Shown here piece after piece: positions 4,128-38,141 of a stretch of 38,141 bases of DNA. Numbering within the stretch: position 1 is the first letter of the stretch; each line of letters opens with the position of its first letter. The position numbers and the translations under genes are program-made. The stretch spans positions 1 through 38,141 of IMG/VR virus record IMGVR_UViG_3300048904_000185. One strand, written 5' to 3'. Source of the DNA: a virus. The notes under the pieces are model-generated. The model worked only from the letters and a program-made list of their open reading frames with translations. It was not told where the DNA came from and ran no database searches.

Positions 4128-4929
4128 TAAAGCGCAACTCGGAGACTTCCTCAAAGAGGTCGCTAACTGGGATTGGCTACAGTTTTTAGAGGCTGAGAAA
4201 AGCCCCGCCTATTCGACGAGTGACTCGATTATCTTCTCGCTTATCCGTGCTTGCTCGATCGAAAAAATGGATGCGATTAAGATTGCGCTGAACCGTATCG
4301 ATGGTAAATTGAAGACACCCGTGCAAATTGAATATCCAAAATTGTTCTATATTTACCCGAACGCGACGAGCATTGAGGGCGGTGAATTTCCATTAGAATA
4401 TCCGCTACTTGAACAAAATAATGATTCAGAAGTTGAACAAAAAATGTATTCAGAAGTCGTCGAGGGTGAGGTAATTCCCCCTGAAGATTTTGAGTTCCAC
4501 GACGATGAAGATATGACAATGAATGACCTGCCAAGTCTCTCGCTTCGCCAGACACTCACAAAGATGTCTGAAGCTCCGCAGTATGTACCGAACGATATTA
4601 TTGAGGCGAGTGAGGCTGTCGAGCAGAACCGCCGTGGCCAGGCAGTCCCATTACCTGACCATATACCTGCCGTAAAATCGGTCATCGCGGCTCACCTGCT
4701 ACGCATGGCTCAACGCAAAAATATCGACGCCTTTTATGAGGTATTCGATCAGATCGATGGTAAGCTTGTCGAGACTATTCAATTACTTGGAGACGACATG
4801 CAGATTCCTATTTACTCGCTGGTTGCCCCGGCTGGGGCTTACAGAAATGCTGATGGTGTGCTACAACTTGAAGCAACACAAGCACAGGAAGTCTGGACAC
4901 GGAAATTAAAAGAATTGGGTAAACAGTAA
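4120..4929 (+). CDS. hypothetical protein with an internal duplication (two ...IDGKL... helices) and an acidic centre
   Basis: 269 aa. IIFSLIRACSIEKMDAIKIALNRIDGKLKTPVQI and VIAAHLLRMAQRKNIDAFYEVFDQIDGKLVETIQL are evident repeats. The style resembles DNA-binding/small-terminase-like helices, but it is unassigned. Confidence 0.55.
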   Translation: MTNKAQLGDFLKEVANWDWLQFLEAEKSPAYSTSDSIIFSLIRACSIEKMDAIKIALNRIDGKLKTPVQIEYPKLFYIYPNATSIEGGEFPLEYPLLEQNNDSEVEQKMYSEVVEGEVIPPEDFEFHDDEDMTMNDLPSLSLRQTLTKMSEAPQYVPNDIIEASEAVEQNRRGQAVPLPDHIPAVKSVIAAHLLRMAQRKNIDAFYEVFDQIDGKLVETIQLLGDDMQIPIYSLVAPAGAYRNADGVLQLEATQAQEVWTRKLKELGKQ

Positions 4930-7430: not shown

Positions 7431-10400
7431 ATGGATTTTCTGAGTAATATTTTTCACGGCATCGGTGACTTTGTTGGTGGTTTACTTAATGGTAATAACA
7501 ATGACCAAAGGAAACGCCAACAACAGCAACAACAATCCTTCTCTGCGCCAGCCCCGCAGAGTTCTGTTCAACCCGGATTCCACTCCGCCCTGCCAGGAGT
7601 TGTTACACAGACCACTACACAAGCACCAGCAGTTAACCTGTACCAAGCTCCCGCCGCGAATCAACTACAGAAACCAGCTGCTCCGAGACCTACACCAGCA
7701 CAGCCTCAGCAGCCATTCGCTGCGCCAGCTCAGTTAACACGGCCACTACCGACCGTAGGTCAAATTACGGGTATCCAGACGCCACAAGCACCATCAACAG
7801 GTCCAGGATTCAATCCGGTTAACTGGGTCGCTGACAACATCGTAAAACCGACTGCCGATGTTGCTGGTAAGGTAGCTAACACAGGAATTGGCGGTATCGC
7901 ACTCGCAGGTAACGCATTATCTGCTGGGGCAGATCAGCTATTTCGTGGCGGTAAAAACGCCAATTTCTATCAAAATGAGGCTAATGCTATCAACAATAAC
8001 TTCCTTGCTCCAGGTAAGGGCTTGTTTGGTGCAGGTGGGTTCCAAACAGGTAAAGACTTTGAAACTGAGTCACCAGCTCAAGCGCTTGGTGCTGGCATTG
8101 GCGCTGGAGCACAGGTAGCGCCATATCTTATCGGTAATCCTGAAGGCGCACTCATAGATAAATTCGGTAATGTTATTGGAGACAAATTTGTCAACGCTGC
8201 TGCCTCAACGCTTGCTAAAAAAGGCTCTCAATATGCCGTTCAGGGTGCTATCACAGCTCCGGCAGTTGCGAGCGCTAATGCAGTAGAGCAGGGTATCGCT
8301 ACAGGTAAATTCGACCCAGGGCAGTCGATTCAGACTGGCCTCGCGAGTATACCCGCTGCAATTCTAGGTAGTGCTGGTGGCGACGCTTTGCACGCTCTTG
8401 GCACAAAAGTTGGCACTGGTAGGCCAGAGACTCAGGCAATACTGCCCGGTGAAGCCGCACCAGGCGTTGCAAGTGTCAATCCGAATCGTGAAACCGATGC
8501 TATCTCGCAAATGACACCACCAGCTGAACAGATGCCTTCTCCACAAGAACAAGTGCCAGCTGTCACTCCTGAAGCCCCTCAACCAGTCGTCCCTCCTCAA
8601 GTACTAGCTACTACTGAACTTCCTCGTATTCCAGAGACTGCAGCGCCTCAGCAGGCTCCAGCAGCTCCAGCAACACACGATATGCTCGTGAAACAGCTTG
8701 GCGATCAAGGTAAGGGTTTTAAAAAGAACTATACGACTCGTGACATCATTAATTTAGATGATTTGAAGCAGAAGGCTACTGGGGTTATAAACAACATGGA
8801 TGACGAATCGCTTGTTCGCTCATTTCAGACTGCTGATCCTGAAACAATTGTTACTAACCCACAGTCATTTGCTGTTGCACGTGCAGCTGTCGAGCGGCTA
8901 AGTAAGAATGCCGACGACCCAGCATCGGTTCAGACAGTTAGTAATCTTCTCGATGCAATGGACAAAGCAAGTAGTCGATCTGGCCAGATGCAGCGTATTG
9001 TACGCGAGGAATTTGATAGTATGCCAGTTCCTATGAAGGCTCGCTATATTATGAAGCAGATTGACAAAGCCAATGTCGGCGATAATGAGTATGTTCCTTT
9101 GAGGGATAGGCCAGACGAAGCAGCTCTTATCGATCAGACGATTACAAGTGGCTTGAACAAGTCAGAAGCCATTGCAAATCGTGTTTCACAGATTCAGGAC
9201 CAATTGAACCAAGTCGCCGAAGCAGCGAAAAATGGCCAAAAAAGTGATGTTAATGTTGGTGATCTCGCAGTTGCGCTAAAAGATGCCGAAATGGAGCTTG
9301 GAGCGAGTAATGGCGAATTGGTCAAATATTATCAGACTTTGGTGCCAAAACGCTCAATTGGCCAAAAAACCAATGATTTTGCTCGAAATGCTATGCTTTC
9401 AAGCTTTACGGGTCGTGTTAACGATATCGCTACTACAGCGACGAATATGGCTCAACAGAGTCTCCAAAACACTGTCCAGGGGGCTATCGCTAAGGGTGTC
9501 AACGCCTTCAGTCCCGGTAAGGTACTTGATACATCCCGGGGTACAGGTGCTTTTTGGCGCGGTACACTTGAAGGTGTCGGTAAAGGTGCGCGTGAGTTTA
9601 CAAATGAGATACAAGCAGGTGATCTACAGAAGTCACTCAAAAATGGCAGTATGGGAAAACGTACTCAGTTAGCGAAATCGCAAAATCCTCTCGGTCGCAC
9701 TATACAGGCATCTACTGAGTTCGCAACTCATGCGAGTGAGGGCGTTCGTGACCAGCGCCTCTATCAATTGGCTATACAAGAAGCTCAGAAAGCCGGCATT
9801 CCACGCAATCTGCGCGACCAATATGCCAGTGCTCGTGCGGCTGTTCCTTCACGTGATATGCTCGATAATGCCCAAAAACTGCACGATACGGTCAATAACT
9901 TGAATGATAATCCAATTAGTAATAAGTTACGCAGTATTGTCGATGCTATCGACCCACCGGGCGCAGCGAAAAAAGGTAATAAAGCTCAAGCATGGGCGGG
10001 TGGCCTTCTTCGTAATCAAATTTTGCCATTTACGAGCTGGGCTGGTGGCAATATCTGGAATGGCGTCACTGACAGAAATGTTGTCGCTGCTGCTGTAAAA
10101 CTCGGTAATTCTATCCGTAAGGGTGATGCAGATGGTATCGTCGAGAACCTCGCTAAAACTGCTATTCATGGTGGTGAGACATACGCGCTAGGCTATTTGC
10201 TTAGTCAGAACGGTACTATTACTAACAAGGATGCAAATGGTAATAGTTATGATGGCCTTTATCTTCATGCAGGTGATCGCTACATACCAGTTGCTTTCAC
10301 TGGCTTCTTTGCGCCGAGTATCATCCTTGGTCATGCTGCTTATCAGGCAATTAACTCTGGTAAGGACCCTGCAAGCGCAATTGGTGACTTTGCCGGTAAC

Positions 10401-11498
10401 ACGCTTGCTGATTGGGCAAAATCGGCAAGCCTTTCGAGCGTCATGGGCACTGACAATAACATTACTCGTTTAGCAGCTGTTCCGGCGTCTGAGCCGAAGG
10501 GTACGAGTGCAGGCGATACACTCGGTGATACGGGTGCTGCGGCTGGTGCAAGCATTATAAATCAATATGTTCCGGCAATAACCCGTGATATTAACTCAGT
10601 TTTGAATAATTATACTGGTCTGAACCCAACGAAAGAGGCAGCCAATACAACGGTCCTTCAGACAAACCCAGCTACCGGCAATCAAGTAAAAGACAAGGGA
10701 GCTAGCGCTGGAGCCAGTATTCTTAATAACATCCCTGTTGCTTCACAACTCGCGTTGCCACGTAAGCAAGGTGTTGCATCGGCTGACCTTGTTGATCGTG
10801 TGACTCATGGCAGTAGTGATACTGCAACAACAAAGCAGCAACGAGCAGACGCACAAACAAAGGCCGATCAGATAGCAGCAGATGCAAAGGCTGGAATCCC
10901 GAACCCTGACGCAACATATAAACAGGGTGACAGTTTTGCTAATGCTGTCGAAAATCGTATTGAGAATAGTCAATACGACCAAGCAATAGCTGGTTTGAAG
11001 GAGCAATTAACAAAGCTTAAATCTGGTGATAATCCAACAAAAGCACAAACTGACCCTGTAGAAAAGCAGATTAAAGAGACGCAAGTACTGAAAGATGGAA
11101 ACTACGACCCGGCAATTCGTGATCTCTATAAACAAACGACGCAGTCACAGTGGCGTGACATGGGTGACCCGAACAGTGATGGATATGACCCAAAGACATA
11201 CGAAATGCTATGGCAGTATCAGAATGACCTTGTGAAGGCAGGTCTTAACACGACTGTCGCTGGTGTGAATACAAATAAATATAGTCCAAAAGCCCCAGCA
11301 AAGGGTCGAAGTGGCAGCGGTGGCCGCGGCGGCTCAACAAGCGCGGCTGGGGGTACCATTAGCCCTGTCGAGCTGAAAAACATCAGCCTGGGTAGCCTTA
11401 GCCCCCAGAAAATCAGCAACGCACCAATCCCAACTATTAGACAGATAAAGCCCACAGATTTGCCAAAAAAGCGTACAATATCAATTAGTAAGGGTTAA
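7431..11498 (+). CDS. large (1355 aa) virion protein, internal core/ejection- or tape-measure-like
   Basis: Longest ORF in the window. N-terminal poly-Q and Pro/Gln-rich region, Gly/Ala-rich hydrophobic segments, long helical regions, C-terminal GRSGSGGRGG. Size and position next to tail tube-like genes recall T7 gp16-class proteins. No catalytic motif seen. Confidence 0.55.
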   Translation: MDFLSNIFHGIGDFVGGLLNGNNNDQRKRQQQQQQSFSAPAPQSSVQPGFHSALPGVVTQTTTQAPAVNLYQAPAANQLQKPAAPRPTPAQPQQPFAAPAQLTRPLPTVGQITGIQTPQAPSTGPGFNPVNWVADNIVKPTADVAGKVANTGIGGIALAGNALSAGADQLFRGGKNANFYQNEANAINNNFLAPGKGLFGAGGFQTGKDFETESPAQALGAGIGAGAQVAPYLIGNPEGALIDKFGNVIGDKFVNAAASTLAKKGSQYAVQGAITAPAVASANAVEQGIATGKFDPGQSIQTGLASIPAAILGSAGGDALHALGTKVGTGRPETQAILPGEAAPGVASVNPNRETDAISQMTPPAEQMPSPQEQVPAVTPEAPQPVVPPQVLATTELPRIPETAAPQQAPAAPATHDMLVKQLGDQGKGFKKNYTTRDIINLDDLKQKATGVINNMDDESLVRSFQTADPETIVTNPQSFAVARAAVERLSKNADDPASVQTVSNLLDAMDKASSRSGQMQRIVREEFDSMPVPMKARYIMKQIDKANVGDNEYVPLRDRPDEAALIDQTITSGLNKSEAIANRVSQIQDQLNQVAEAAKNGQKSDVNVGDLAVALKDAEMELGASNGELVKYYQTLVPKRSIGQKTNDFARNAMLSSFTGRVNDIATTATNMAQQSLQNTVQGAIAKGVNAFSPGKVLDTSRGTGAFWRGTLEGVGKGAREFTNEIQAGDLQKSLKNGSMGKRTQLAKSQNPLGRTIQASTEFATHASEGVRDQRLYQLAIQEAQKAGIPRNLRDQYASARAAVPSRDMLDNAQKLHDTVNNLNDNPISNKLRSIVDAIDPPGAAKKGNKAQAWAGGLLRNQILPFTSWAGGNIWNGVTDRNVVAAAVKLGNSIRKGDADGIVENLAKTAIHGGETYALGYLLSQNGTITNKDANGNSYDGLYLHAGDRYIPVAFTGFFAPSIILGHAAYQAINSGKDPASAIGDFAGNTLADWAKSASLSSVMGTDNNITRLAAVPASEPKGTSAGDTLGDTGAAAGASIINQYVPAITRDINSVLNNYTGLNPTKEAANTTVLQTNPATGNQVKDKGASAGASILNNIPVASQLALPRKQGVASADLVDRVTHGSSDTATTKQQRADAQTKADQIAADAKAGIPNPDATYKQGDSFANAVENRIENSQYDQAIAGLKEQLTKLKSGDNPTKAQTDPVEKQIKETQVLKDGNYDPAIRDLYKQTTQSQWRDMGDPNSDGYDPKTYEMLWQYQNDLVKAGLNTTVAGVNTNKYSPKAPAKGRSGSGGRGGSTSAAGGTISPVELKNISLGSLSPQKISNAPIPTIRQIKPTDLPKKRTISISKG

Positions 11499-16519: not shown

Positions 16520-17656
16520 ATGAGCGAAATTGAATCACCAGCCGCAGCGGTAATGCCAGATGCTTCAGCACCACAGGTACCAGAGCCTGTTGCACCGATA
16601 GCACCAGAACCAGTTGCACCAACAAACGATCAGCAGCAGGCAGACCCAAATGCCCCATCTAATATCACAGATGACGAACAGGCAGAATGGGACGAAGCCG
16701 CGAAATCGCTTGGCTTTCCAGGTGTAAAATCAACTGCCAAAAAAACTGATGAGGAGCAGCAACCTAATGGGCAAGATGAACAGCCGAAAGCAGACGAAGC
16801 GACGACAACGACAACAACTGTTGTCCCGGAAACGCCAACAACAGATACAACTACAGTCGCGCCAGTTGAAGCCACTGAAGACGGCGATGAAGAAGCGGGC
16901 CAACCTGATACCTCCATCAGGGATTCTCGGGCTATCGCTCGAGAGGTAGCTCAACAGCTTGAAGAAACAAAAGCAAATGTTCGTGAGCAATTATTCGGTG
17001 ATACGCCACGTGCGCTTATTGATAAGGATGGCAACGAAATTAAAGATTCCAGCGATGTTATGCAGTATGTCAACCCTGCGACAAAGACCGAGGAAAACCC
17101 CGAAGGCCGTCTATTTACTCGTGAAGAGGCAGATCAATGGCTTGCGTATCAGCGTAGCGAAATAAATACGAAAGTCGCTGAAAATGAAAAAGAAGTTGAG
17201 CGAATCGCCAATATCAATATCGGTATTGCTGACCAGGCTGACTCAATCAACGAGCAGTATGGTGAAATTCTCAAGGCTGACCCCGAACTCCGTGCAGAGT
17301 TGTGGAAGCAATATAGCAAAACACTTGTTACCAAAAAGGGTAAAGATGCTGAGGGTAAAGAAATCGATATCATTGTCGATGCTCCATATTCACTTGAGGA
17401 ATACTACCGCAACGCTCTTGAGCCACGCGCTGAAATCGGTCGTCAGCTAGAGGCCCAGGAAGCAGCTCAGGCTGCCGAAGCTGAGCGTCTTAAGCAGGAG
17501 CAGGAAAAACAGCGCAAGGAAAGCCGCCAAGACCGCTCTGATATTTATGGCGGAAGTGGCGATAAAGGCGGTATTGTCAGCGACGAAGCAAAAGAGTGGG
17601 ATGCGGCCGCAGCTGCTGTATTCAGCCCCGATCAACTAAACGCATTAAAGAAATAA
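16520..17656 (+). CDS. scaffold-like protein (acidic, coiled-coil, Thr-run near the N-terminus)
   Basis: 378 aa. GGGGGATAG RBS region. Highly charged helical C-terminal half (EAQEAAQAAEAERLKQEQEKQRKE). Lies between portal and capsid genes. TTTTTT...TTDTTT at 16802-16855. Confidence 0.5.
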   Translation: MSEIESPAAAVMPDASAPQVPEPVAPIAPEPVAPTNDQQQADPNAPSNITDDEQAEWDEAAKSLGFPGVKSTAKKTDEEQQPNGQDEQPKADEATTTTTTVVPETPTTDTTTVAPVEATEDGDEEAGQPDTSIRDSRAIAREVAQQLEETKANVREQLFGDTPRALIDKDGNEIKDSSDVMQYVNPATKTEENPEGRLFTREEADQWLAYQRSEINTKVAENEKEVERIANINIGIADQADSINEQYGEILKADPELRAELWKQYSKTLVTKKGKDAEGKEIDIIVDAPYSLEEYYRNALEPRAEIGRQLEAQEAAQAAEAERLKQEQEKQRKESRQDRSDIYGGSGDKGGIVSDEAKEWDAAAAAVFSPDQLNALKK

Positions 17657-17668
17657 GGAGAATGAGTC

Positions 17669-18241
17669 ATGGCTATTAAATGGTGGAATATCCGCAGTAA
17701 AGAAATCCGTATATCAGAGACTGAACCACATACCGCTGCAATGTGGGCAAGTTCAGATCATAGTCCGAACATTACCCAGGGACAAGATTTTGGTTGGCGT
17801 TTAGCCCCAGAGGTCGTTGTCGAAATGAAAAAAATCAAGCAAGACTTGCCAACGCTTACTGAGATTGCACGTCAGATCATGAAACAAACTGATGAAATTA
17901 CTGAGCCGGATATCTTGATGTATATCTCTGCGAAGTACGATGATAGTAATGCGCCACAGGCTGATGATGGCGACTACACAGATGAGTACGACGCCGAAAT
18001 TCGTCGTCTACAGGCTCAAGCTGATCGTGACAATAACCCACTTCCAGTTACCGAAACGACCACTGAAAGCCTCGCAGACTTGCAGAAACGTGTTGAGCTG
18101 CAAGAGCGTCTCGCAGCTGCCAAAAAAGTTGAGGAAGCACCTGTCACTACTACCACTACAGAAACACCTACAACGACAACCACCACCGTAAAACAAGCTA
18201 ATACTGGTCGTACTACAACGACGACTACGGAGGCAAAATAA
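17669..18241 (+). CDS. head-module protein with a C-terminal Thr-run tail
   Basis: 190 aa ending ...APVTTTTTETPTTTTTTVKQANTGRTTTTTTEAK (Thr-rich region 18146-18229). Function unknown (decoration protein, head fibre and small terminase are all open). Confidence 0.5.
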   Translation: MAIKWWNIRSKEIRISETEPHTAAMWASSDHSPNITQGQDFGWRLAPEVVVEMKKIKQDLPTLTEIARQIMKQTDEITEPDILMYISAKYDDSNAPQADDGDYTDEYDAEIRRLQAQADRDNNPLPVTETTTESLADLQKRVELQERLAAAKKVEEAPVTTTTTETPTTTTTTVKQANTGRTTTTTTEAK

Positions 18242-18536: not shown

Positions 18537-18869
18537 ATGGCAACAGAAAGCGGAACTGGCACTGGCCCAGAATCACCAACCACAACTACCACAACTGAGG
18601 CGGAAGTTACGACGACAACTGCCACCACAGAAGAACCAACCACGACTACCACCACAGTCGATAGTACTGAGGAAGATTTCAACTCTCAAGATGAAGCTGC
18701 GGCACAAGAAAAGGCATTTGAAGATGCTGTTGCAGCTGGTCGGAATACTGAAGTCGAAGAGCCAGCAGACGACCACATCCTTGGCGACAACGAAACAACA
18801 CATGGCGAATTACTCGCCAACGCTCGTGCAGAGGCTCTTGCCAATCACGAAGCTGAGCACGCTGAATAA
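18537..18869 (+). CDS. small acidic protein with N-terminal Thr runs
   Basis: 110 aa, with RBS AAAGGGG. SPTTTTTTEAEVTTTTATTEEPTTTTTTVDS at 18579-18656. Its stop codon directly abuts the terminase stop codon (TAA|TTA). Confidence 0.5.
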   Translation: MATESGTGTGPESPTTTTTTEAEVTTTTATTEEPTTTTTTVDSTEEDFNSQDEAAAQEKAFEDAVAAGRNTEVEEPADDHILGDNETTHGELLANARAEALANHEAEHAE

Positions 18870-20240
18870 TTAACTAGCGGGTTTATACTGGGCGGCAGCT
18901 GCGAAGCTGTCGCTTTCATATGTCTCTTGGCCACCTGCCTCGAATAGGAAGTTACCAGCATCATCGAAGAATTGTCTAATCGCTGCAAACATATAGCGAA
19001 CTGAGTCAGCCGCGTGCGACTCAGTTTTATGTTCTGGCCCCATATACTCGCCTGTATCAGGATTCCACTTACGGGAGTATTTAAGGAGTTTTTCGCGCAG
19101 TTGTTTGGTTGTCTCGGTATTCATGAATGACTTTATGATTTCTTCAACAGCACGCTGTATACCGTGCTCCTTGCCTTCGCGGGTGATAATCGATATGTTG
19201 GTCAGACCAAGGGCCTCAAGCTTCTGTATGCGCTCGATAGCGTCGCTCTGTTCACGGACATTAGCATCGTGCGGCACAAAATGCCAGCCGTAGTTGTATG
19301 GTTTCAGTTTGAGGGCAGCCACTATGGTGTTATAGGCTACATCATGGGTTTCGTAATAATCGATAATAAACAGCTGTTTGTTCACATACTGGAAGAAGGT
19401 TATGGCTGTGCTATCGCCGGTACCAAGGTCCCAGGCGGTATAAACTGGCCATTCACTGCGCCATGGCACATCACGAATACGGCCTCGTTTTTCTAGCTGC
19501 ATGAGGGCATTGCCATAGTAGCTTGTTTCGCTCACCTGGCCCCAGTCACACATGTACTCCTGCATAAACTTAAAGTTACTACCGTACTTCTCGATAATTT
19601 CTTCTTCGAGGTCTTTGAGGATTTCTTTTGATAGGAAGTGGTCGGCAGTGATACGGCTGGCGAACTGGGTTTTGTCACCCTCTGTCCACTTCCTAAAGGC
19701 ACGCTCCCACATCTTTTTAAAGGCAGCACCAGAGGTACCATCGACTTTTGGCGTCGACTGGACGATGATTTGACCACCGTTCACAGCAATGATTGGACGG
19801 ATAACTTCGTAGGCCTCGCTACTAATATCAACGAACTCAGAGAAGATATATAGCTTGCCGTTCGCACCACGTAGTGCTTCAGGGTCTTTGGCACCGAGTA
19901 GCGACAGCACACTGCCGTTTTTAAATATAATTTTCATATTAGTTTCGCTGTTTGTACGACTCGCAACAATGCCCTTTGGTATGTGGTCGAAGATCTTTTT
20001 GCCATCGTTTTCAGTAGTGTTCCAAAAGTTGTCATACCCCTGTTTCATAGTCGGCCAAACGATGACAACGTTCATTGGCTCTTGTACCATCTTTTTGATA
20101 GCATAGGCAAAAGCAGTGAAGTCTTTGCCACCACGACGGGCCCAGCACCATACTGAAATGGTGACACCGAGATCGAGTGCAGCCAGCGCCTCGGCTTGGT
20201 AGTCGCGCGGGTCAAAGTAGAGTGGTACTTGTATAGCCAT
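18870..20240 (-). CDS. terL: terminase large subunit
   Basis: 456 aa. N-terminal ATPase (YQAEAL..., WCWARRGGKDFTAFAY Walker A-like, IFSEF Walker B-like). C-terminal nuclease motifs (YTAWDLGTGDSTAITFFQ, HFVPHDANVRE, HAADSVRY). Confidence 0.9.
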   Translation of the reverse strand: MAIQVPLYFDPRDYQAEALAALDLGVTISVWCWARRGGKDFTAFAYAIKKMVQEPMNVVIVWPTMKQGYDNFWNTTENDGKKIFDHIPKGIVASRTNSETNMKIIFKNGSVLSLLGAKDPEALRGANGKLYIFSEFVDISSEAYEVIRPIIAVNGGQIIVQSTPKVDGTSGAAFKKMWERAFRKWTEGDKTQFASRITADHFLSKEILKDLEEEIIEKYGSNFKFMQEYMCDWGQVSETSYYGNALMQLEKRGRIRDVPWRSEWPVYTAWDLGTGDSTAITFFQYVNKQLFIIDYYETHDVAYNTIVAALKLKPYNYGWHFVPHDANVREQSDAIERIQKLEALGLTNISIITREGKEHGIQRAVEEIIKSFMNTETTKQLREKLLKYSRKWNPDTGEYMGPEHKTESHAADSVRYMFAAIRQFFDDAGNFLFEAGGQETYESDSFAAAAQYKPAS

Positions 20241-20272: not shown

Positions 20273-20290
20273 AATAGCATAAATGCTATT
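20273..20290. promoter_or_regulatory. perfect 8-bp-arm palindrome (AATAGCAT aa ATGCTATT), candidate operator
   Basis: Read in the divergent terL/capsid gap. Its right arm overlaps the TTGCAA -35 box by 2 nt (20289-20290). No U-run, so it is unlikely to be a terminator. Confidence 0.35.
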
Positions 20291-20318
20291 GCAATTAGAG
20301 AATCATTACCGCTATAAT
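20289..20318 (+). promoter_or_regulatory. sigma-70/sigma-A-type promoter for the capsid operon
   Basis: TTGCAA (20289-20294), an 18-nt spacer, then TATAAT (20313-20318), 53 nt upstream of the capsid ATG. RBS ACGAGGA. Confidence 0.55.
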
Positions 20319-20371: not shown

Positions 20372-21220
20372 ATGGCATACGGTACAAAAACCGCAAACGT
20401 CATGGACATCCCACTGAGCATTAGTTCGGTTTTTACCCCTTACGTGGGCGACCAGGGCTATAAGTGGGACGGCCTGAACAGCGTCCGTGTCCTGTCTATT
20501 GCAGACGGTTCACTGTCGAACTACGACGAAACCAGCGCTACTGCCCCATTCGGCAGTCCATCGCTCGTCGTGCCAAATGAGCAAGTTCTGGCATTGGCTT
20601 ACAACAAGTCGATGTTGCTCCGCATCCAGCGCACCCAGATTCAGGACATTCCAGTTAGCCAATTCGCAAAGCAAGTTGCTTTGCAGCAAGCTAACGATGT
20701 GTTTGTCCCAGCGCACGACGCTTACTCATTGGGTAAAGTGTTCGCAGCGCGCCCTTCCGGTAACGTGACTGCCGTAAATACAAGTCGCAACGATAATGGT
20801 CTTCAGACCATGATTAACAAAATCCGTACTGCGGGTGGTAATCTTTCAAACGTTGTTTGTTGGGTTACGTACACCTTCGCAGCTACCATCCGTGACAAGA
20901 TCAACTACACTGGTAGTGACGCTGGTTACGCAAATGGTCAGAACGGCTACCTTGGGAAGATCGCCGGTGTTACAACCGTCGAAGTGCCTGATCTCTACCT
21001 GTTCGCAGGTGTGAGCGCTCTTGCAGCTGACAAACGAGCAATCGTCAACGTCACTCCTAAGATGGACCCAAAGCGTGATTTGGTTGTCATCGACCCTGTG
21101 CCATCGTTTAGCGGTGTTGAGCTTCAGCTCCGTGACCGTGCAGACACATTCGTGTTGAACAAAAAAGTCAACGCAGTTGCATCACTTGAAACTGCTGCTT
21201 CGACCACAACGACTACTTAA
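20372..21220 (+). CDS. major capsid protein (putative), C-terminal TTTTT tail
   Basis: 282 aa with its own strong promoter and RBS. Position follows the portal/scaffold block. The sequence style resembles small HK97-fold podovirus coat proteins. It ends ...LETAASTTTTT (Thr codons 21203-21217). Confidence 0.65.
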   Translation: MAYGTKTANVMDIPLSISSVFTPYVGDQGYKWDGLNSVRVLSIADGSLSNYDETSATAPFGSPSLVVPNEQVLALAYNKSMLLRIQRTQIQDIPVSQFAKQVALQQANDVFVPAHDAYSLGKVFAARPSGNVTAVNTSRNDNGLQTMINKIRTAGGNLSNVVCWVTYTFAATIRDKINYTGSDAGYANGQNGYLGKIAGVTTVEVPDLYLFAGVSALAADKRAIVNVTPKMDPKRDLVVIDPVPSFSGVELQLRDRADTFVLNKKVNAVASLETAASTTTTT

Positions 21221-21236
21221 TTGGTAGCCGCACGGT

Positions 21237-22106
21237 ATGAAAATAATATTGTGTCAGCCAGCGATCAAACGCTTCCAATGGGAGCTTGAGGTCCTGCTGA
21301 CCAATATTAGGCAATTCGGTAACTTTGAAGTCGTACTCTTATTTACGGAGTACGACTTTACTGTTCCGATGTATTTCCGTAATAAGTACCCGGAGTGTGA
21401 GGTATACACCTACCCTGAGCGCGCTAACCGCGCATACATTCCGTCAGTACGCCCGTACTTGTGGTGGAAATATCTATCGGAGGACCCAAGCCGCGAAAAA
21501 GAAACCTATCTTTATATCGATAGTGACGTCATTTTTCGTGAAATGCTAGATTTTGCGACATTAGGTGCAGACGCCGACCACTGGGTTGGTAGTGACTGTT
21601 CGAGCTATATTAGCTATGATTACATGTCAAAATGCGAAAAGGGTGATATAATTGCCGCAAAAATGGCTGAAATAACTGGTGTAACAATCGACCAGATGAA
21701 GGCTACGCCAGGTGCAGGCGCACAGTGGGTTATCACCAATCCTACCGCTGAGTATTGGAAACGAGTCTACGACGACAGTAATAGTATCTACAACTATTTT
21801 AGTGGCGTTGATAGCAATATCCAGAAGTGGACCGCCGAAATGTGGGCACAGCTATGGGGTATGGTGCGTGAGGGTAAAACGGTGCTTATGCCGAAAGAGA
21901 TGGACTTTATTATGTCCACGAACCCAGCTGATGACTATTATGGAGTAAAAATACTCCATAATGCAGGGGTTACTGGCTCTGACGATGGTTGGTTCTTTAA
22001 GGGGGCATTTGCTGATGAATCACCCCTTGGCCGCGACTGGGATGGTATTCGGACTGATAAAGCAGTATGGCATTATATACAGGCGCTTAAAAAGGTAGTA
22101 GTATAG
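21237..22106 (+). CDS. GT-A-fold glycosyltransferase-like protein
   Basis: 289 aa. ETYLYIDSDVIF (DxD at aa 95-97, nt 21519-21527) follows a hydrophobic strand. A later KILHNAG His lies at aa 241. The spacing is reminiscent of Mn-dependent GT8-like enzymes. Motif-level evidence only. Confidence 0.55.
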   Translation: MKIILCQPAIKRFQWELEVLLTNIRQFGNFEVVLLFTEYDFTVPMYFRNKYPECEVYTYPERANRAYIPSVRPYLWWKYLSEDPSREKETYLYIDSDVIFREMLDFATLGADADHWVGSDCSSYISYDYMSKCEKGDIIAAKMAEITGVTIDQMKATPGAGAQWVITNPTAEYWKRVYDDSNSIYNYFSGVDSNIQKWTAEMWAQLWGMVREGKTVLMPKEMDFIMSTNPADDYYGVKILHNAGVTGSDDGWFFKGAFADESPLGRDWDGIRTDKAVWHYIQALKKVVV

Positions 22107-22129: not shown

Positions 22130-22909
22130 ATGGATTATGACTACTTACCAGTAAGCAACGGTTCCGGAGACTCAGCACTAATGCACATCATGGCCGACCG
22201 GTCGGTCGGTGCTACTTCGTTTACTGTTGATGGTACAGTCAACGTCGCTACAAAGTTCATTGGTACGACAGGCACACTCCTGTCAACTGGTTATATTGAC
22301 CCCACCACCAAAAAAGATATTAAGATGCACAAGGTTGACTCAACCCATGTCGCAATCGACGCCTTCGAGCCAGGTTTTACTGATACCGGTAATACAACTG
22401 GCCAGGTAATCGTTGTCAAGCCGAATACTGGCTGGGCAAACCGCGTCGCTAGTCATATTAAGAATATGACGGGCTTTGGTACCCCAGAGAGTGTCACTGT
22501 AGCAGGTCTGACGGCCTCGAGTAACGTAAGTGTTGGTGGGAATCTGACCGTGACCGGCAGTCTAACTGTCAGTGGTGGCCAGCGGCCGAACCCTCGCTCG
22601 TCGTCAACCACCTCGGTGACGACACTCACTCCAAACATAGACACATACAACTTCTACGACCTGACAGCACAAGCCGCTGGGCTGACAGTCGCGAACCCAA
22701 CGGGCACACCTCGTGATGGTGATGTTATACTCATCCGTATTAAAGACAATGGTACGAGCCAAACAATCACCTATGGCACTGCCTATACAAATATCAGTGG
22801 GCTTGATAGCCTAGTCGCGACGACAATTAGCAAGTGGCACACGATTGGCGCTGTTTACGAAGCGACAACCTCGAAATGGCAGATAGTTAGCATAACTACG
22901 GAGGCGTAG
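22130..22909 (+). CDS. tail fibre/receptor-binding-like protein
   Basis: 259 aa with RBS AAGGGG. Beta-rich with VGGNLTVTGSLTVSGG-type fibre repeats. Confidence 0.45.
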   Translation: MDYDYLPVSNGSGDSALMHIMADRSVGATSFTVDGTVNVATKFIGTTGTLLSTGYIDPTTKKDIKMHKVDSTHVAIDAFEPGFTDTGNTTGQVIVVKPNTGWANRVASHIKNMTGFGTPESVTVAGLTASSNVSVGGNLTVTGSLTVSGGQRPNPRSSSTTSVTTLTPNIDTYNFYDLTAQAAGLTVANPTGTPRDGDVILIRIKDNGTSQTITYGTAYTNISGLDSLVATTISKWHTIGAVYEATTSKWQIVSITTEA

Positions 22910-23916: not shown

Positions 23917-24309
23917 ATGGCAGGTGTTATTGAATTTACCCGAGGCGATGGTGTTCACCATTCGCTACTTATTCCTACCGCGAACTGGACAGCAGGTGGT
24001 ACACTCTTTTTTGGCGCAAAACCCGCGATCGACGATGATGCAACAGATACCGTTGCTGTGCTAAAGAACTCATGGACAGACTCTGCTACCTCCGATGTTA
24101 CGGTGAATGGTGTAGCGTATAAAAAATATGACTGCTATTTTCCGCACGCGGTTACTTATCCTATCGATAGTGGTGGAGCCGATGAGTTAGATCTCCTCGG
24201 AGAATTTCAGTGGGTACCTGCTGGTGGTGGCGACCCTATTACTTTTCCAGCTAGCAATGACAAGCTCGATTGCAAAATTTACTTCGATGTTAACCGAAGG
24301 ACATCATAA
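23917..24309 (+). CDS. tail/baseplate-associated small protein
   Basis: 130-aa beta-rich ORF, translationally coupled to the fibre gene (ATAATG overlap at 24309). Confidence 0.4.
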
Positions 24310-26039
24310 TGGCAGAGTTTGTTATTGTTGGCGATGACGAAACACAAGCGATCGTCCAGACGGGTGATACAGTCAATATCACTGTTGATGGTGCGCTCAA
24401 GGGTGAGAAGGGTGATACCGGCCCAGTTGGTCCAACTGGTGATACTGGCCCCATAGGTCCGACCGGCGCTACGGGTCCAACAGGACCACAGGGTCCAACA
24501 GGAGCGTCCGGGTCGGCTGCTACTATCAACGTAGGAACGGTCACAACTGGCACAGCTGGCTCCTCAGCAGTTATTACGAATAGCGGCACAACCTCGGCCG
24601 CTGTGCTTGATTTTACGATTCCCCGGGGTGATACAGGTGTCCAGGGTATCGCGGGTGTTGAGGTGCAAACAACCGCCCCCGCAGACCATACAGTTGTTTG
24701 GGTAGACCCAAGCGATAGCGCGCCGAGTCTTGGCCTACTGCCAGCTGGAGGTACTTCTGGCCAGGTGCTCGCGAAAAATTCAAGTACTGATTATGATGCT
24801 CACTGGGTAGCGGCCGGTACGGGTGATATGGCGAAGGCGACTTATGACCCTGCAAATATTGCACAGCAATTAGTCGGTACGACAGCTACGCAGACCCTAA
24901 CTAACAAAGATCTTACCGCTGTTACAAATACATTTCCCATTTTTAACCAAAATACAACAGGTAATGCTGCAACTGTCACGACAAACGCCAATATGACTGG
25001 CGATGTCACGAGTGTTGGTAATGCAACGACCTATAACAACGTAGTACCTGTCACAAAGGGCGGTACAACCTTAACGGGCTTCACGAATAACACATTTATC
25101 ACCGCTAATAGCACTACGACTCTTCAATCAAGCAAAGTAGTTCCTACAGGTACTGTTGTTGGCACGAGCGATACACAGGTACTTACTAATAAAGATCTCA
25201 CATCGGGCACCAACACGTTTCCGACGCTCAATCAAAATACTACCGGCAGTGCAGCAAAGTGGACAACTGCGAGAAATCTTGCGGGTAACTCTGTTGATGG
25301 CTCGGCCAACGTTGCATTTACGAATAAGTTTATTGTTCAGGGTACAACAGACGCAGGACTCTCTGGTGCGCAATTCCTTGGAGCGCTGGCTACAGGTATA
25401 GTTAAGAACACAACAACGACAGGTGTACTATCAATTGCCGTAGCTGGTGACTTCCCAACGCTTAACCAAAATACGACGGGCAGCGCAGCGACCCTCACAA
25501 CAGCACGCACTATACAGACAAACCTTGCGAGCACCTCAAGCGCTTCATTTGATGGTTCTGCAAATATAACTCCAGGTGTGACGGGTACACTACCGGTCGC
25601 GAATGGCGGCACGGGCGCTACGACATTAACTGGTATCCTCAAAGGTAGCGGCACAAGTGCTGTTACAGCGGTTACGGCCCCTACTGGCGCTATTGTCGGT
25701 ACGACAGACACACAGACGCTATCTGCTAAGACGCTAACAACTCCGACGATAAATGGTGTTGTTATGGCTATTTCAAGTAAGACAGCTAACTACACACTCA
25801 CGGCAACAGATTATACGGTGTTATTTGATACTACATCTGGTGCTCTCACAGCAACCCTTCCAGCAGCGTCAAGCAACAGTGGTGCGGTGTTCAATATTAA
25901 GCATACGGTTGGGTTATCAGCTGTTACGATCGCCGTAACTGGTGGTGATACAATTGATGGTCTTTCGACATACTCGCTCACAAATCCATATGATTCAGTA
26001 ACTTTGCACTCAACAGGCAGCGCCTGGATGATATTATAG
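24309..26039 (+). CDS. tail fibre with a collagen-like Gly-X-Y stretch and repeated [10 protein letters not shown] / NQNTTGSAA modules
   Basis: 576 aa. 13 consecutive G-X-Y triplets ([39 protein letters not shown]) at 24402-24518. Three to four copies of the VGT.DTQ.LTNKDLT...NTFP.LNQNTTG.AA module. Confidence 0.8.
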
Positions 26040-26048
26040 GAGTTAGAC

Positions 26049-27230
26049 ATGGCATACTCACAAAAATCACGAAAACTCTCACTCGCCGATACAATAAAAC
26101 CGGCAAGCAATGTGACATACCCAGCATCAGATATTACCGCTATCACAAATAGTACCACCGCACCAACTTATACGGGTGGCTGGAACTTCCTTTTTAATAC
26201 CGGTGGTCAGCCACAGCGTATGCTTTATGGCTTCACCTGGTACAACTACAGTGGTAATGGTGTCAAAGCTGACAGCGGCGCGACACAGCCTGGTACGGCC
26301 TCTCTTGAGCCATGGCAGGTTGAGTTTTATCATCTAGGCAATGACTTTGCTTTTTGGTCAGTGAACCTTGTCCAAGCGGATTTCATAATTTACGTCGATG
26401 ATATGCCACTCACCTCAGATTGGGCACAGACTAATGCAACAGCATTCAGTAGTAACTATTACCGAGTGCAGTTTGCTACCACCAAAATGCGCCGTATTCG
26501 CATCCTTTGTAGCGGCCTTACAACCTTTACAGGCATTATGCACGCAGCAGGTGGTAATATGTGGGCGGCACCGCAACGCTTTCGTTGTGCGGTTGTCGGC
26601 GATAGCTATATTCAGGGCGGTCACACTGACTCAGTTGAGGGTAGTATCCAAGGTGCAGCGTTTGGCAATCAACTTGCTATACAGACAGGCTGGGAGGTAT
26701 TCACACAAGGTCAGGGTAGCACTGGCTACATAAACAACGGCGGTAACACTGGTGGTAAAGATGTTTACGGGGCAACATCTCGTATATCAACACTACAGGC
26801 TCTCGCACCGCTCGATCTGATTATCGTTTATGGTAGTGGAAATGACTCTGGCTACACAGGGTCAGCAGTCGCAACAGCAGTCAATGCCTACTGGAATAGC
26901 CTTGCAACTAATCTTCCTGGTGTACCTATTATTGTATTCGGTGTCCAACCTGGTTCACCATCAGGTTTCACCCCTAGTCTGCTTGACTCGACGAATACTG
27001 TCATTAAGCAACAGGCTGCTATTAACCCGAACGTCGCTGGGTTTGTCGATATGCGTGATACGACAACTGGCGTACAGCCATGGGTAACAGGTACAGGCAA
27101 TACAGGTGCACCTGTCTACGATGGTAATGCTGATAGTTTCATTTGCTCAGACGGTGTACATCCTACTCGTGAAGGATATCGTAATATGATAGAGCACTCA
27201 GTAGCAGCGCTCAGAAAGATAAAGATATGA
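26049..27230 (+). CDS. SGNH/GDSL-family hydrolase (tail-associated esterase)
   Basis: 393 aa. Block I AVVGDSYIQGG, block III VYGSGNDSG, block V SDGVHPTREGY. Preceded by an unassigned N-terminal domain of ~180 aa. Its stop overlaps the next fibre gene. Confidence 0.75.
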   Translation: MAYSQKSRKLSLADTIKPASNVTYPASDITAITNSTTAPTYTGGWNFLFNTGGQPQRMLYGFTWYNYSGNGVKADSGATQPGTASLEPWQVEFYHLGNDFAFWSVNLVQADFIIYVDDMPLTSDWAQTNATAFSSNYYRVQFATTKMRRIRILCSGLTTFTGIMHAAGGNMWAAPQRFRCAVVGDSYIQGGHTDSVEGSIQGAAFGNQLAIQTGWEVFTQGQGSTGYINNGGNTGGKDVYGATSRISTLQALAPLDLIIVYGSGNDSGYTGSAVATAVNAYWNSLATNLPGVPIIVFGVQPGSPSGFTPSLLDSTNTVIKQQAAINPNVAGFVDMRDTTTGVQPWVTGTGNTGAPVYDGNADSFICSDGVHPTREGYRNMIEHSVAALRKIKI

Positions 27231-28793: not shown

Positions 28794-29948
28794 GTGCCTA
28801 ACGCTGAACTATCAATACAGTGGTACACTGACCGTCAAGGTAAAGTAACCTACTCGATGACAAATCGTCGTGGACCAAACAGCTACGACTGCTCAAGTGC
28901 ACAATATTATTCACTCATACAAGGCGGTTATCTCCCTGTAGGTATCTACATCGGTAATACTGATAGCCTCTTTGGAGATCTCGAGAAATATGGTTGGCAG
29001 CAGATTCAACCAAACTCGCAAGGAAATTATGACACGCAACGAAATGACATTTTTATTTGGGGTCGCCGTGGCGCTTCTAGCGGTGCTATTGGTCATACTG
29101 GCCGATTTATCGACGCGAACAACGTGATTCACTGTAATGCTTACTTTAATGGCATCTCTATAAACGATTATGATGGTCTACAGGCGGCAAATGGCTGGCC
29201 AACAGCTACCTACTATCGCTATGTCGGAGGTCAGGTAATTACCCCTGAGCCAGTCGATCAGGTAGTCAACCCTGGCTCATACATCCAATTTGGCACAATC
29301 TACCGTGTTGACGACGTGCAGCAGTATGCTGGCCTCTGGCAAGTACGTACCGACGTGCTCTGTCCTGTCGGCTTCACTTGGGCAGACAATGGTATCCCAG
29401 CAGGCCCACTTTTCGAAGTTGACGCTGATGGCTATCGTAGCGACGATCAGGTACTCGAAGTAGGCTCCTGCTATGTATTGCCGGGCAAATATCAAGTACT
29501 AGATGTCGGGCAGTCAAATGGCCGCTGGCTCGCGCAGATTATGATTGATGGCTTTAAATTCTGGATCGATCTCGAGACAGTCACCGAGGTTGGTCCAAAC
29601 GACCCTGGTGTTCCAACACCCCCATCGCGTCCGCAGGTAACAACAACTACCACCACACTGGAGAAACCAAGTGAACCGATATCAACTACTACCACGACAG
29701 CGCCTATTGGAGTTACAACGACTGAACCAGTCACTACAACAACTACGGCACCCGTCCCTCCTACATCGACTACAACAACATCTATCCCCGATGATGCGCT
29801 GGAAGGAATCGACCTTGAGGGAAATGCTACGACCACGACGACCACGACGACCACAGCTTACCAGCTTCCGGTTGGATTTTGGGCGGCGTTCTGGCTCGGG
29901 GTCAAACAAACATTAACAGCCATACTAAGGCGGCTACAAGGGAGATAA
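28794..29948 (+). CDS. endolysin: Amidase_5 (Pal-type) domain + SH3b-like domain + Thr/Pro-rich extension + C-terminal hydrophobic helix
   Basis: GTG start with AGGAG 8 nt upstream. QGKVTYSMTNRRGPNSYDCSS and RNDIFIWGRRGASSGAIGHTGRFIDANNVIHCNAYFNGISINDYD match, from memory, pneumococcal phage Dp-1 Pal-type Amidase_5 lysins. The middle region (YRVDDVQQYAGLWQVRTD...NGIPAGPL) is SH3_5-like. Thr runs span 29640-29855. The tail is LPVGFWAAFWLGVKQTLTAILRRLQGR. Confidence 0.85.
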   Translation: MPNAELSIQWYTDRQGKVTYSMTNRRGPNSYDCSSAQYYSLIQGGYLPVGIYIGNTDSLFGDLEKYGWQQIQPNSQGNYDTQRNDIFIWGRRGASSGAIGHTGRFIDANNVIHCNAYFNGISINDYDGLQAANGWPTATYYRYVGGQVITPEPVDQVVNPGSYIQFGTIYRVDDVQQYAGLWQVRTDVLCPVGFTWADNGIPAGPLFEVDADGYRSDDQVLEVGSCYVLPGKYQVLDVGQSNGRWLAQIMIDGFKFWIDLETVTEVGPNDPGVPTPPSRPQVTTTTTTLEKPSEPISTTTTTAPIGVTTTEPVTTTTTAPVPPTSTTTTSIPDDALEGIDLEGNATTTTTTTTTAYQLPVGFWAAFWLGVKQTLTAILRRLQGR

Positions 29949-37983: not shown

Positions 37984-38128
37984 TGTCTGCCTCTTTCTCT
38001 AAATGCAACTCGTATTTCTTACCATTGACAACGAACTCGCCATCAATCGACTCTCTCTTGCCTGCCTCCATCGCCCGCACCAGTATCTCTACGGCTTGTA
38101 CGACAATGCTGCCCTCTGCGTCATTCAT
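37976..38128 (-). CDS. 50-aa junction-spanning ORF (not in the ORF track)
   Basis: Hand translation: MNDAEGSIVVQAVEILVRAMEAGKRESIDGEFVVNGKKYELHLEKEADNE. RBS GAAGGGG 7 nt upstream. The first 114 nt lie inside the terminal repeat. Confidence 0.45.
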   Translation of the reverse strand: MNDAEGSIVVQAVEILVRAMEAGKRESIDGEFVVNGKKYELHLEKEADNE

Positions 38129-38141
38129 AACTTAACCCCTT
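38015..38141. repeat. Terminal direct repeat copy 2 (identical to 1-127)
   Basis: See copy 1. The match is exact over 127 nt. Confidence 0.95.

Follow-up and report, generated by a model that had tools for sequence, protein, structure and literature searches.

A predicted GT-A glycosyltransferase encoded next to a poly-threonine-tailed phage capsid: a candidate enzyme-substrate cassette for virion O-glycosylation

Does a virus that encodes a sugar transferase directly behind its capsid gene glycosylate its own particle? This question is raised by the IMG/VR virus record IMGVR_UViG_3300048904_000185, which was analysed over its whole length of 38,141 nucleotides (nt) and is called the window below. 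A first-pass annotation, made from the letters alone, had described a putative major capsid gene whose product ends in TTTTT, followed 16 nt later by a gene for a GT-A-like glycosyltransferase with a DxD motif at residues 95-97 and a histidine in the motif ILHNAG at residue 241, and had read the pair as a sign that the phage glycosylates its own particle. Both descriptions are borne out in the sequence. The capsid open reading frame (ORF; 282 amino acids, 20372-21220, + strand) ends ...NAVASLETAASTTTTT (...LETAASTTTTT) before the stop codon TAA at 21218-21220. The S-TTTTT tail, the proposed acceptor of O-glycosylation, is encoded at 21200-21217 (+), with serine (Ser) at 21200-21202 and the five threonines (Thr) at 21203-21217 as ACC ACA ACG ACT ACT. 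A spacer of 16 nt (21221-21236) separates it from the transferase ORF (289 amino acids, 21237-22106, +), which carries ETYLYIDSDVIF, with D95 at 21519-21521 and D97 at 21525-21527 (DxD at nt 21519-21527), and, further downstream, KILHNAG with H241 at 21957-21959. A promoter-like site (TTGCAA-18-TATAAT, 20289-20318, +) was found by consensus scan where the capsid gene and the minus-strand terminase gene diverge, ahead of the former, and the site scan found no terminator-like site between the capsid and transferase genes, so that the two are presumably co-transcribed.

The transferase matches PHROG 4417 over its full length (E 6.1e-106, 354.8 bits, residues 1-287 of 289 on profile positions 1-291 of 293), a family annotated as 'unknown function', the members of which are labelled 'hypothetical protein' in GenBank. 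An hmmscan against Pfam-A at E<=1 matched 0 families, Glyco_transf_8 (PF01501) included, the NCBIfam scan gave only a spurious porin match (E 0.038), and a sequence-profile search of the PDB gave nothing relevant; membership of CAZy GT8 or PF01501 at the sequence level is thus rejected. The AlphaFold2 model, built on 46 homologues, has a predicted local distance difference test (pLDDT) score of 96.7 and a predicted template-modelling (TM) score (pTM) of 0.92. Of the 231 PDB matches that Foldseek gave for it (E<=1e-3), the best 50 belong without exception to retaining GT-A enzymes of the families GT6, GT24 or GT8 (E 1e-7 to 1e-6, probability 1.0, TM about 0.5); the neighbours include the GT6 blood-group enzymes GTA and GTB and alpha-1,3-galactosyltransferase (alpha3GalT), the catalytic domain of the GT24 enzyme UGGT, and the GT8 enzyme LgtC. 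When BFVD was searched with Foldseek, two PHROG 4417 relatives came first, and several viral transferases of GT8/GT6 type followed among the best matches, making up most of those that have an informative name. The GT-A fold that had been expected from the sequence is therefore what the structure search returned, and the model supports well a retaining, GT6/GT8/GT24-like GT-A fold for the product of 21237-22106.

The residues that catalysis would need are conserved as well. No change at D95, D97, H241 or N242 is seen in 46 close and nine distant members of the family (to E 1e-40), and D95-S-D97 stands directly after strand 90-93 of the model, where GT-A enzymes have their DxD. The donor/Mn site of LgtC has Asp103, Asp105 and His244 (PMC4202792), and the invariant H241 occupies a position similar to that of His244 when the two are compared along the sequence. 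The 'family-8-like' label of the first-pass annotation thus holds for the overall fold and for the DxD after the beta-strand, both shared with GT8, GT6 and GT24 enzymes, and may hold for the C-terminal histidine, to judge from its place in the sequence (D95/D97/H241 versus D103/D105/H244 of LgtC), but not for sequence-level membership of GT8. A further difference is that the known enzymes of these three families act on glycans, lipo-oligosaccharide or N-glycoproteins, not on poly-Thr tails, and none of them is matched here at the level of sequence. On reading the transferase sequence, no signal peptide or transmembrane segment was noted, and the enzyme should therefore act in the cytoplasm.

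For the neighbouring ORF (20372-21220), profile and fold agree on a capsid protein of the HK97 fold. It matches PHROG 422 'major head protein' over its full length (E 1e-10, profile search), 531 homologues were found, and the top Foldseek matches of its AlphaFold model are exclusively HK97-fold phage capsids and encapsulins; the model is of low confidence (pLDDT 51) and was used for fold class only. With tblastn the capsid gave a single weak match only, to Dulem virus 31. The C-terminal tail, in the form S-T(4-6), is kept in 120/120 of the closest capsid homologues (72-99% identity), and tail and enzyme are both kept even where identity has fallen to 67% for the capsid and to about 50% for the enzyme.

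The tail follows the enzyme among more distant relatives. In a set of IMG/VR loci anchored on capsid homologues of 51-79% identity, in which absence of the enzyme was judged within 6 kb, a poly-Thr tail is present in all ten capsid loci with an adjoining enzyme (10/10) and in none of those without it (0/29), the capsids of the latter ending in ...SLEND, ...LEDETSA or similar (29/29). Runs of at least five Thr number 23 in 106 kb of enzyme-positive loci versus 0 in 290 kb of enzyme-negative loci. The enzyme-negative relatives have the next structural gene directly 3' of the capsid gene. In L229 and similar loci it is homologous to window gene 22130-22909 along its full length; in other enzyme-negative loci it is a longer ORF that has only its N-terminal ~110 residues in common with the 22130-22909 product. 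Compared in this way, the locus looks like a clean presence/absence difference of the enzyme gene between relatives. A naive Fisher test on 10/10 versus 0/29 gives about 1.6e-9, a figure that overstates the evidence because the enzyme-positive phages form one clade in the capsid tree. Several independent events behind the covariation in this capsid family are ruled out by this single clade; the sequences point to one gain followed by strict co-retention (120/120 tails). As the covariation amounts to one evolutionary event, independence of evidence comes only from a survey across families.

Such a survey is possible since the window enzyme, which the first-pass annotation had taken for an independent instance, is one member of a large family comprising 851 clusters at 50% identity, 77 GenBank phage records and at least 433 IMG/VR stretches, and found mostly in Bacillota. 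In 81/81 viral loci (80 IMG/VR contigs and the record of Enterococcus phage phiFL1A), the ORF that immediately precedes the family member has a poly-Thr tail at its end. In bacterial genomes, taken one per species, a poly-Thr-tailed ORF is found upstream in 40/44, ending 0-95 nt before the start codon of the enzyme; two of the four exceptions carry (TTTS)n tails, and counting these gives 42/44. The co-occurrence of transferase and Thr tail on which the first-pass annotation had staked its proposal is thus essentially perfect. In phiFL1A the upstream protein is a tail-tube protein ending ...NGTTTTTSTTTTTTSSTTTTTTTQASSK, and an upstream poly-Thr tail is likewise found in Clostridium phage phiCTP1, Staphylococcus phage vB-SscS-F1 and the Lactobacillus myovirus Semele. 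In Enterococcus phage VPE25 it is a tail-tube gene downstream of the transferase that bears the poly-Thr tail, and the capsid gene upstream has a tail only in the -1 frame. Taken together, the tailed upstream proteins comprise capsids of PHROGs 422, 840, 29 and 10, tail-tube proteins of PHROGs 238 and 88, and small Ig/FN3-like proteins. Because these are mutually non-homologous, the pairing arose repeatedly, and by their annotation the tailed partners appear always to be major repetitive surface subunits of the particle. The hosts and sources of the cassette are Bacillaceae, Lactobacillales, Staphylococcus, Listeria, Clostridium and aquatic viral contigs. Some longer family members carry further domains: P0273 has a second glycosyltransferase (GT) domain of the Glyco_transf_7C type, P0319 is fused to radical-SAM and SPASM domains, P0378 has an N-terminal methyltransferase, and many further members of 500-780 residues have C-terminal extensions without a Pfam match. 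To judge from their domains, such partners are in keeping with an enzyme that builds glycans.

The coupling was also approached from the opposite side, with 120 viral fragments picked solely for eight consecutive Thr codons. Seven of the 120 hold a family member, against a base of at least 433 confirmed stretches in 2.9 million contigs, which corresponds to a rough enrichment of two to three orders of magnitude over the base rate. Four of the fragments (L088, L121, L183 and L190), from environmental viral contigs, have several consecutive ORFs that end in poly-Thr at, or a few residues from, the C-terminus. L121 carries a distant family member (E 2.5e-40). As the fetched fragments of L088, L183 and L190 showed none, other enzymes may serve similar tails.

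Within the window itself, Thr tracts are not confined to the capsid. Of the 11,349 residues in ORFs taken as genes, 9.0% are Thr, and 13 runs of at least five Thr are present where ~0.07 would be expected, so the runs are not due to chance. They use mixed codons (ACC/ACA/ACG/ACT) and form no simple repeat. Runs of at least four Thr occur in six proteins, namely those encoded at 16520-17656, 17669-18241 and 18537-18869, the capsid (at its C-terminus), the fibre protein (24309-26039), which has one T4 run only, and the endolysin (28794-29948). The 378-residue acidic protein of 16520-17656, for which no PHROG, Pfam or NCBIfam match was found, has a T6 run at residues 95-100 (16802-16819, +); the 190-residue protein of 17669-18241 has runs of T5, T6 and T6 in its C-terminal tail (18146-18229, +); and the 110-residue acidic protein of 18537-18869 has T6, T4 and T6 near its N-terminus (18579-18656, +). 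All three are possible further acceptors, and homologues of the second have poly-Thr tracts in 4/8 transferase-positive versus 0/14 transferase-negative relatives. The endolysin (+ strand) consists of Amidase_5, ZoocinA_TRD, a Thr/Pro-rich region of ~90 residues and a C-terminal hydrophobic/amphipathic helix (YQLPVGFWAAFWLGVKQTLTAILRRLQGR); a membrane-anchoring tail is unusual on a lysin. Five runs of T4 to T9 at residues 283-354 (29640-29855, +) make its linker Thr-rich, and this linker could be another substrate of the transferase or simply a plain linker. The earlier idea of the capsid tail as acceptor is thus upheld in that the tail covaries with the enzyme, but must be widened to allow for Thr tracts in the endolysin and other proteins.

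The reading that we prefer, with a probability of roughly 0.7, is that poly-Thr tracts, on the capsid as well as on other proteins, are O-glycosylated by a soluble, Mn-dependent GT-A enzyme of the cytoplasm, the enzyme and its substrate being encoded as a cassette. The transferase would probably be made late, together with the capsid. D95/D97 and H241 would hold a metal-bound uridine diphosphate (UDP)-sugar, the donor being a host nucleotide sugar, probably a UDP-hexose or UDP-N-acetylhexosamine (UDP-HexNAc), and the sugar would be moved to Thr hydroxyls in the poly-Thr tracts, probably in a retaining reaction that leaves an alpha linkage. The principal acceptor would be the S-T5 tail of the capsid, the one acceptor that appears universal in this lineage, with the Thr runs on three other head-region proteins and in the endolysin linker as likely secondary acceptors. 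The particle would end up with a dense coat of short O-glycans, resembling mucin, to which every capsid subunit contributes one cluster. Because only one transferase was recognised in the ORFs scanned, the glycans are expected to be single sugars or short chains, barring extension by host enzymes. The phage might gain protection against antibodies or proteases, solubility or colloidal stability of the particle, or adhesion; a glycan shield comes first because of the analogy with mycobacteriophages considered below.

Several observations weigh against this reading. The assignment as a glycosyltransferase rests on the fold of a model, for which the Foldseek TM is moderate (about 0.5), and the capsid model (pLDDT 51) is too poor to place the C-terminus outward. 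The capsid tail of the window is short, with five Thr, and the enzyme-positive phages of its capsid family are a single clade. Thr tracts are also found in the linker of the endolysin, and such linkers commonly act as plain flexible spacers. Finally, 113/120 of the poly-Thr viral fragments had no family member in the fetched stretch, and poly-Thr thus does not require this enzyme family. What the analysis shows is the fold, the conservation of catalytic-type residues and how tightly the enzyme family is coupled to poly-Thr tails in genomes; the donor, the acceptor chemistry, the outward exposure of the tail and the function or benefit are what we infer. The view of the first-pass annotation that the phage glycosylates its own particle is supported as a prediction, as far as computation reaches.

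Among other explanations, the transferase may not add the first sugar but extend it. Host enzymes, e.g. an O-linked N-acetylglucosamine (O-GlcNAc) transferase of the GtfA/GtfB type that primes Ser/Thr-rich proteins in Bacillota, would then add the first sugar and the GT8-like phage enzyme the second. GT8, which is among the structural neighbours, contains the second-step enzymes in the glycosylation of serine-rich-repeat proteins (adhesins). Furthermore, some family members are fused to another GT domain, suggesting multi-step glycans. However, the hosts are very diverse, so that reliance on one host priming system seems fragile, and direct glycosylation of protein side chains by retaining GT-A enzymes is well known from glycogenin, clostridial toxins and the polypeptide N-acetylgalactosamine (ppGalNAc) transferases. 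A purely extending role is thus considered unlikely.

It is also conceivable that the target is not a protein. The enzyme could modify phage DNA bases or host wall teichoic acid or polysaccharide, for restriction evasion or superinfection exclusion, the Thr tails being unrelated flexible linkers. Known roles of phage glycosyltransferases are mostly DNA glucosylation and serotype conversion, as summarised in PMC12619734, and poly-Thr tracts occur in many viral contigs without the enzyme family. Yet such a target leaves unexplained both the adjacency to a poly-Thr ORF (81/81 viral and ~42/44 bacterial loci, in unrelated structural families) and the absence of Thr runs from transferase-negative relatives. 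Moreover, the gene sits in a late structural operon and no DNA-hypermodification genes were recognised among the ORFs scanned, and we regard a non-protein target as improbable.

The same fold might serve a chemistry other than sugar transfer, with a phospho-sugar, glycerol-phosphate or nucleotide being transferred to the Thr tracts, or the protein might be a non-catalytic chaperone that binds the tails. The assignment is by fold only, no curated family matches, and the nucleotide-diphospho-sugar transferase fold hosts other chemistries; but the top structural neighbours are all true Leloir glycosyltransferases, and the invariant DxD and His argue for metal-nucleotide-sugar catalysis over mere binding, which makes this explanation quite improbable. 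The last one, a mobile two-gene unit spread by recombination with Thr tracts arising from slippage-prone ACN repeats and no functional link, might be suggested by the cassette-like look of the enzyme with its Ig/FN3-like poly-Thr partners (beside recA and sigma-factor genes in Semele), but is hardly tenable, as fused tails occur on resident capsid and tail-tube genes that are unrelated, and not only on cassette genes, the Thr codons are mixed, and tail and enzyme are both retained through the divergence of capsid and enzyme described above.

Direct glycosylation of poly-Thr tails thus remains the preferred reading, and two side observations on its possible acceptors may be added. The first concerns the small single-domain Ig/FN3-like proteins, which have very long poly-Thr tails, e.g. 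(T5-7 + KP/VAP spacer) x4-6, and are encoded directly upstream of the transferase; such pairs were located in Semele (L247, 2994-4879), vB-SscS-F1 (L246, 3203-4885) and L031 (~9100-10873). In Semele the pair adjoins recA and sigma-factor genes and lies outside the structural module, a placement that suggests a mobile cassette of a tagged decoration protein and its enzyme. The second concerns the Enterococcus phages VPE25 (L082, nt ~4740-4890) and Planchet (L296, nt ~1755-1900), the annotated capsid ORFs of which end without a Thr tail (..VVATAK* and ..VVAAPKA*, respectively). In both phages the -1 frame continues into a poly-Thr ORF of ~40-45 codons that ends ~100 nt short of the PHROG 4417 gene. 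In Planchet, a canonical slippery heptamer (C_CCA_AAA) precedes the stop by two codons; VPE25 has only A_AAG. Both phages are candidates for programmed -1 frameshifting, by which a minor capsid isoform with a poly-Thr tail would be made; a frameshift is annotated in neither record.

As to the genome in which the cassette of the window is found, an exact direct terminal repeat of 127 nt (1-127 = 38015-38141) leaves a unit of 38,014 bp, and because of this repeat the window is taken as a complete genome, circularly closed or terminally redundant; an assembler k-mer overlap may equally well be the origin of the repeat. No GenBank phage matched 16 kb of the window in a megablast search, and the genome itself is therefore new. 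The large terminase gene (18870-20240, -) lies on the opposite strand, amid head genes. The fibre protein (24309-26039, +; 576 amino acids) combines a collagen-like G-x-x stretch with three subsequent copies of the motif 'FP(T/I)(L/F)NQNTTG(S/N)AA', and the gene after it (26049-27230, +) encodes a GDSL/SGNH esterase domain, possibly a tail enzyme that deacetylates the receptor. The lysin domains Amidase_5 and ZoocinA_TRD suggest a Gram-positive host. The nearest match to the transferase in the genome collection (52% identity) is on a 33-kb contig, JBPCJO010000084.1 (L250), of a metagenome-assembled genome (MAG) of Candidatus Saccharimonadales, where a capsid like that of the window, ending ...LETAASTTTTT, is encoded 18 nt 5' of the enzyme gene. 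This may either be a hint on the host range of the phage lineage or reflect a phage contig mis-binned into the MAG.

To our knowledge, glycosylation of phage-particle proteins has so far been documented only for some mycobacteriophages, the virion glycosylation of which was reportedly described by Freeman et al. in 2023 (Cell Host Microbe 31:1216). Glycosylation in mycobacteriophages alters antibody production and binding. As cited in PMC12619734 and PMC11256854, phages such as Che8, Corndog and Myrna encode glycosyltransferases and are reported to bear glycans at the C-termini of capsid and tail-tube subunits, with a glycan shield as the reported function. The same two protein classes, capsid and tail-tube, bear poly-Thr tails beside PHROG 4417 genes. 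In a further likeness, the phage-encoded transferase co-occurs with candidate acceptor structural proteins (10/10 versus 0/29; 81/81; 40-42/44). The Che8 proteins gp108, gp109 and gp110 align to the enzyme family with hhalign probabilities of 0.1%, 5.9% and 0.1%, respectively, and homology of the family to the Che8 glycosyltransferases is rejected (probability <6%). Their genes lie at the far right genome end, away from the capsid gene, whereas the window enzyme adjoins it. Unlike the proteins of the window family, the Che8 capsid (...NKTGS) and tail-tube protein (...YSDGS) end without a poly-Thr tract, and the hosts are Actinobacteria in the one case and mostly Bacillota in the other. By analogy, then, the putative PHROG 4417 system parallels mycobacteriophage virion glycosylation in how it would work, but with an unrelated enzyme, a different acceptor motif and genes arranged as a cassette.

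A second comparison is with cellular systems. Mucin-type O-glycosylation is carried out by ppGalNAc-transferases (GT27), and the serine-rich-repeat adhesins of Gram-positive bacteria are glycosylated in the cytoplasm by GtfA/B together with GT8 enzymes. These systems have densely O-glycosylated low-complexity Ser/Thr/Pro-rich tracts, as proposed for the phage proteins, and use retaining GT-A domains, and the Thr blocks of the family are spaced by KP, VAP or EP, like the proline-, threonine- and serine-rich (PTS) domains of mucins. On the other hand, no lectin domain or GtfA/B partner was recognised in the phage, the presumed phage acceptors are virion proteins from the bacterial cytoplasm, and their tracts are almost pure Thr, not Ser-rich.

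A literature search, of incomplete coverage so that a prior description is possible, gave no description of the enzyme family or of a poly-Thr/transferase pairing in phages. On the whole it seems rather probable that a previously unrecognised, widespread 'mucin-coat' cassette of phages is at hand, in which PHROG 4417 enzymes go with poly-Thr tails that unrelated capsid, tail-tube and Ig/FN3-like decoration proteins acquired independently, in phages of Bacillota (among them cultured ones such as VPE25, phiFL1A, phiCTP1 and Semele) and some aquatic viruses, and in which a programmed -1 frameshift would dose the tail in some phages. If this is true, the phenomenon would extend to phages of lactic acid bacteria, enterococci, staphylococci, clostridia and bacilli, with another enzyme family at work and with the poly-Thr tail as an acceptor motif that is simple and can be recognised in sequences, and many phages of Gram-positive bacteria, therapy candidates included, would carry unnoticed glycosylated particles. 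It would provide a sequence rule to predict sugar-coated phages, a function for a PHROG family of 'unknown' function, and a compact enzyme-tag pair usable to glycosylate engineered capsids. The value would lie mainly in the general rule and less in the single genome, and phages already in culture allow a direct test. Such a coat would bear on phage therapy through immune clearance, on the behaviour of phages in mucus and gut, and on the cryo-electron microscopy maps of such phages.

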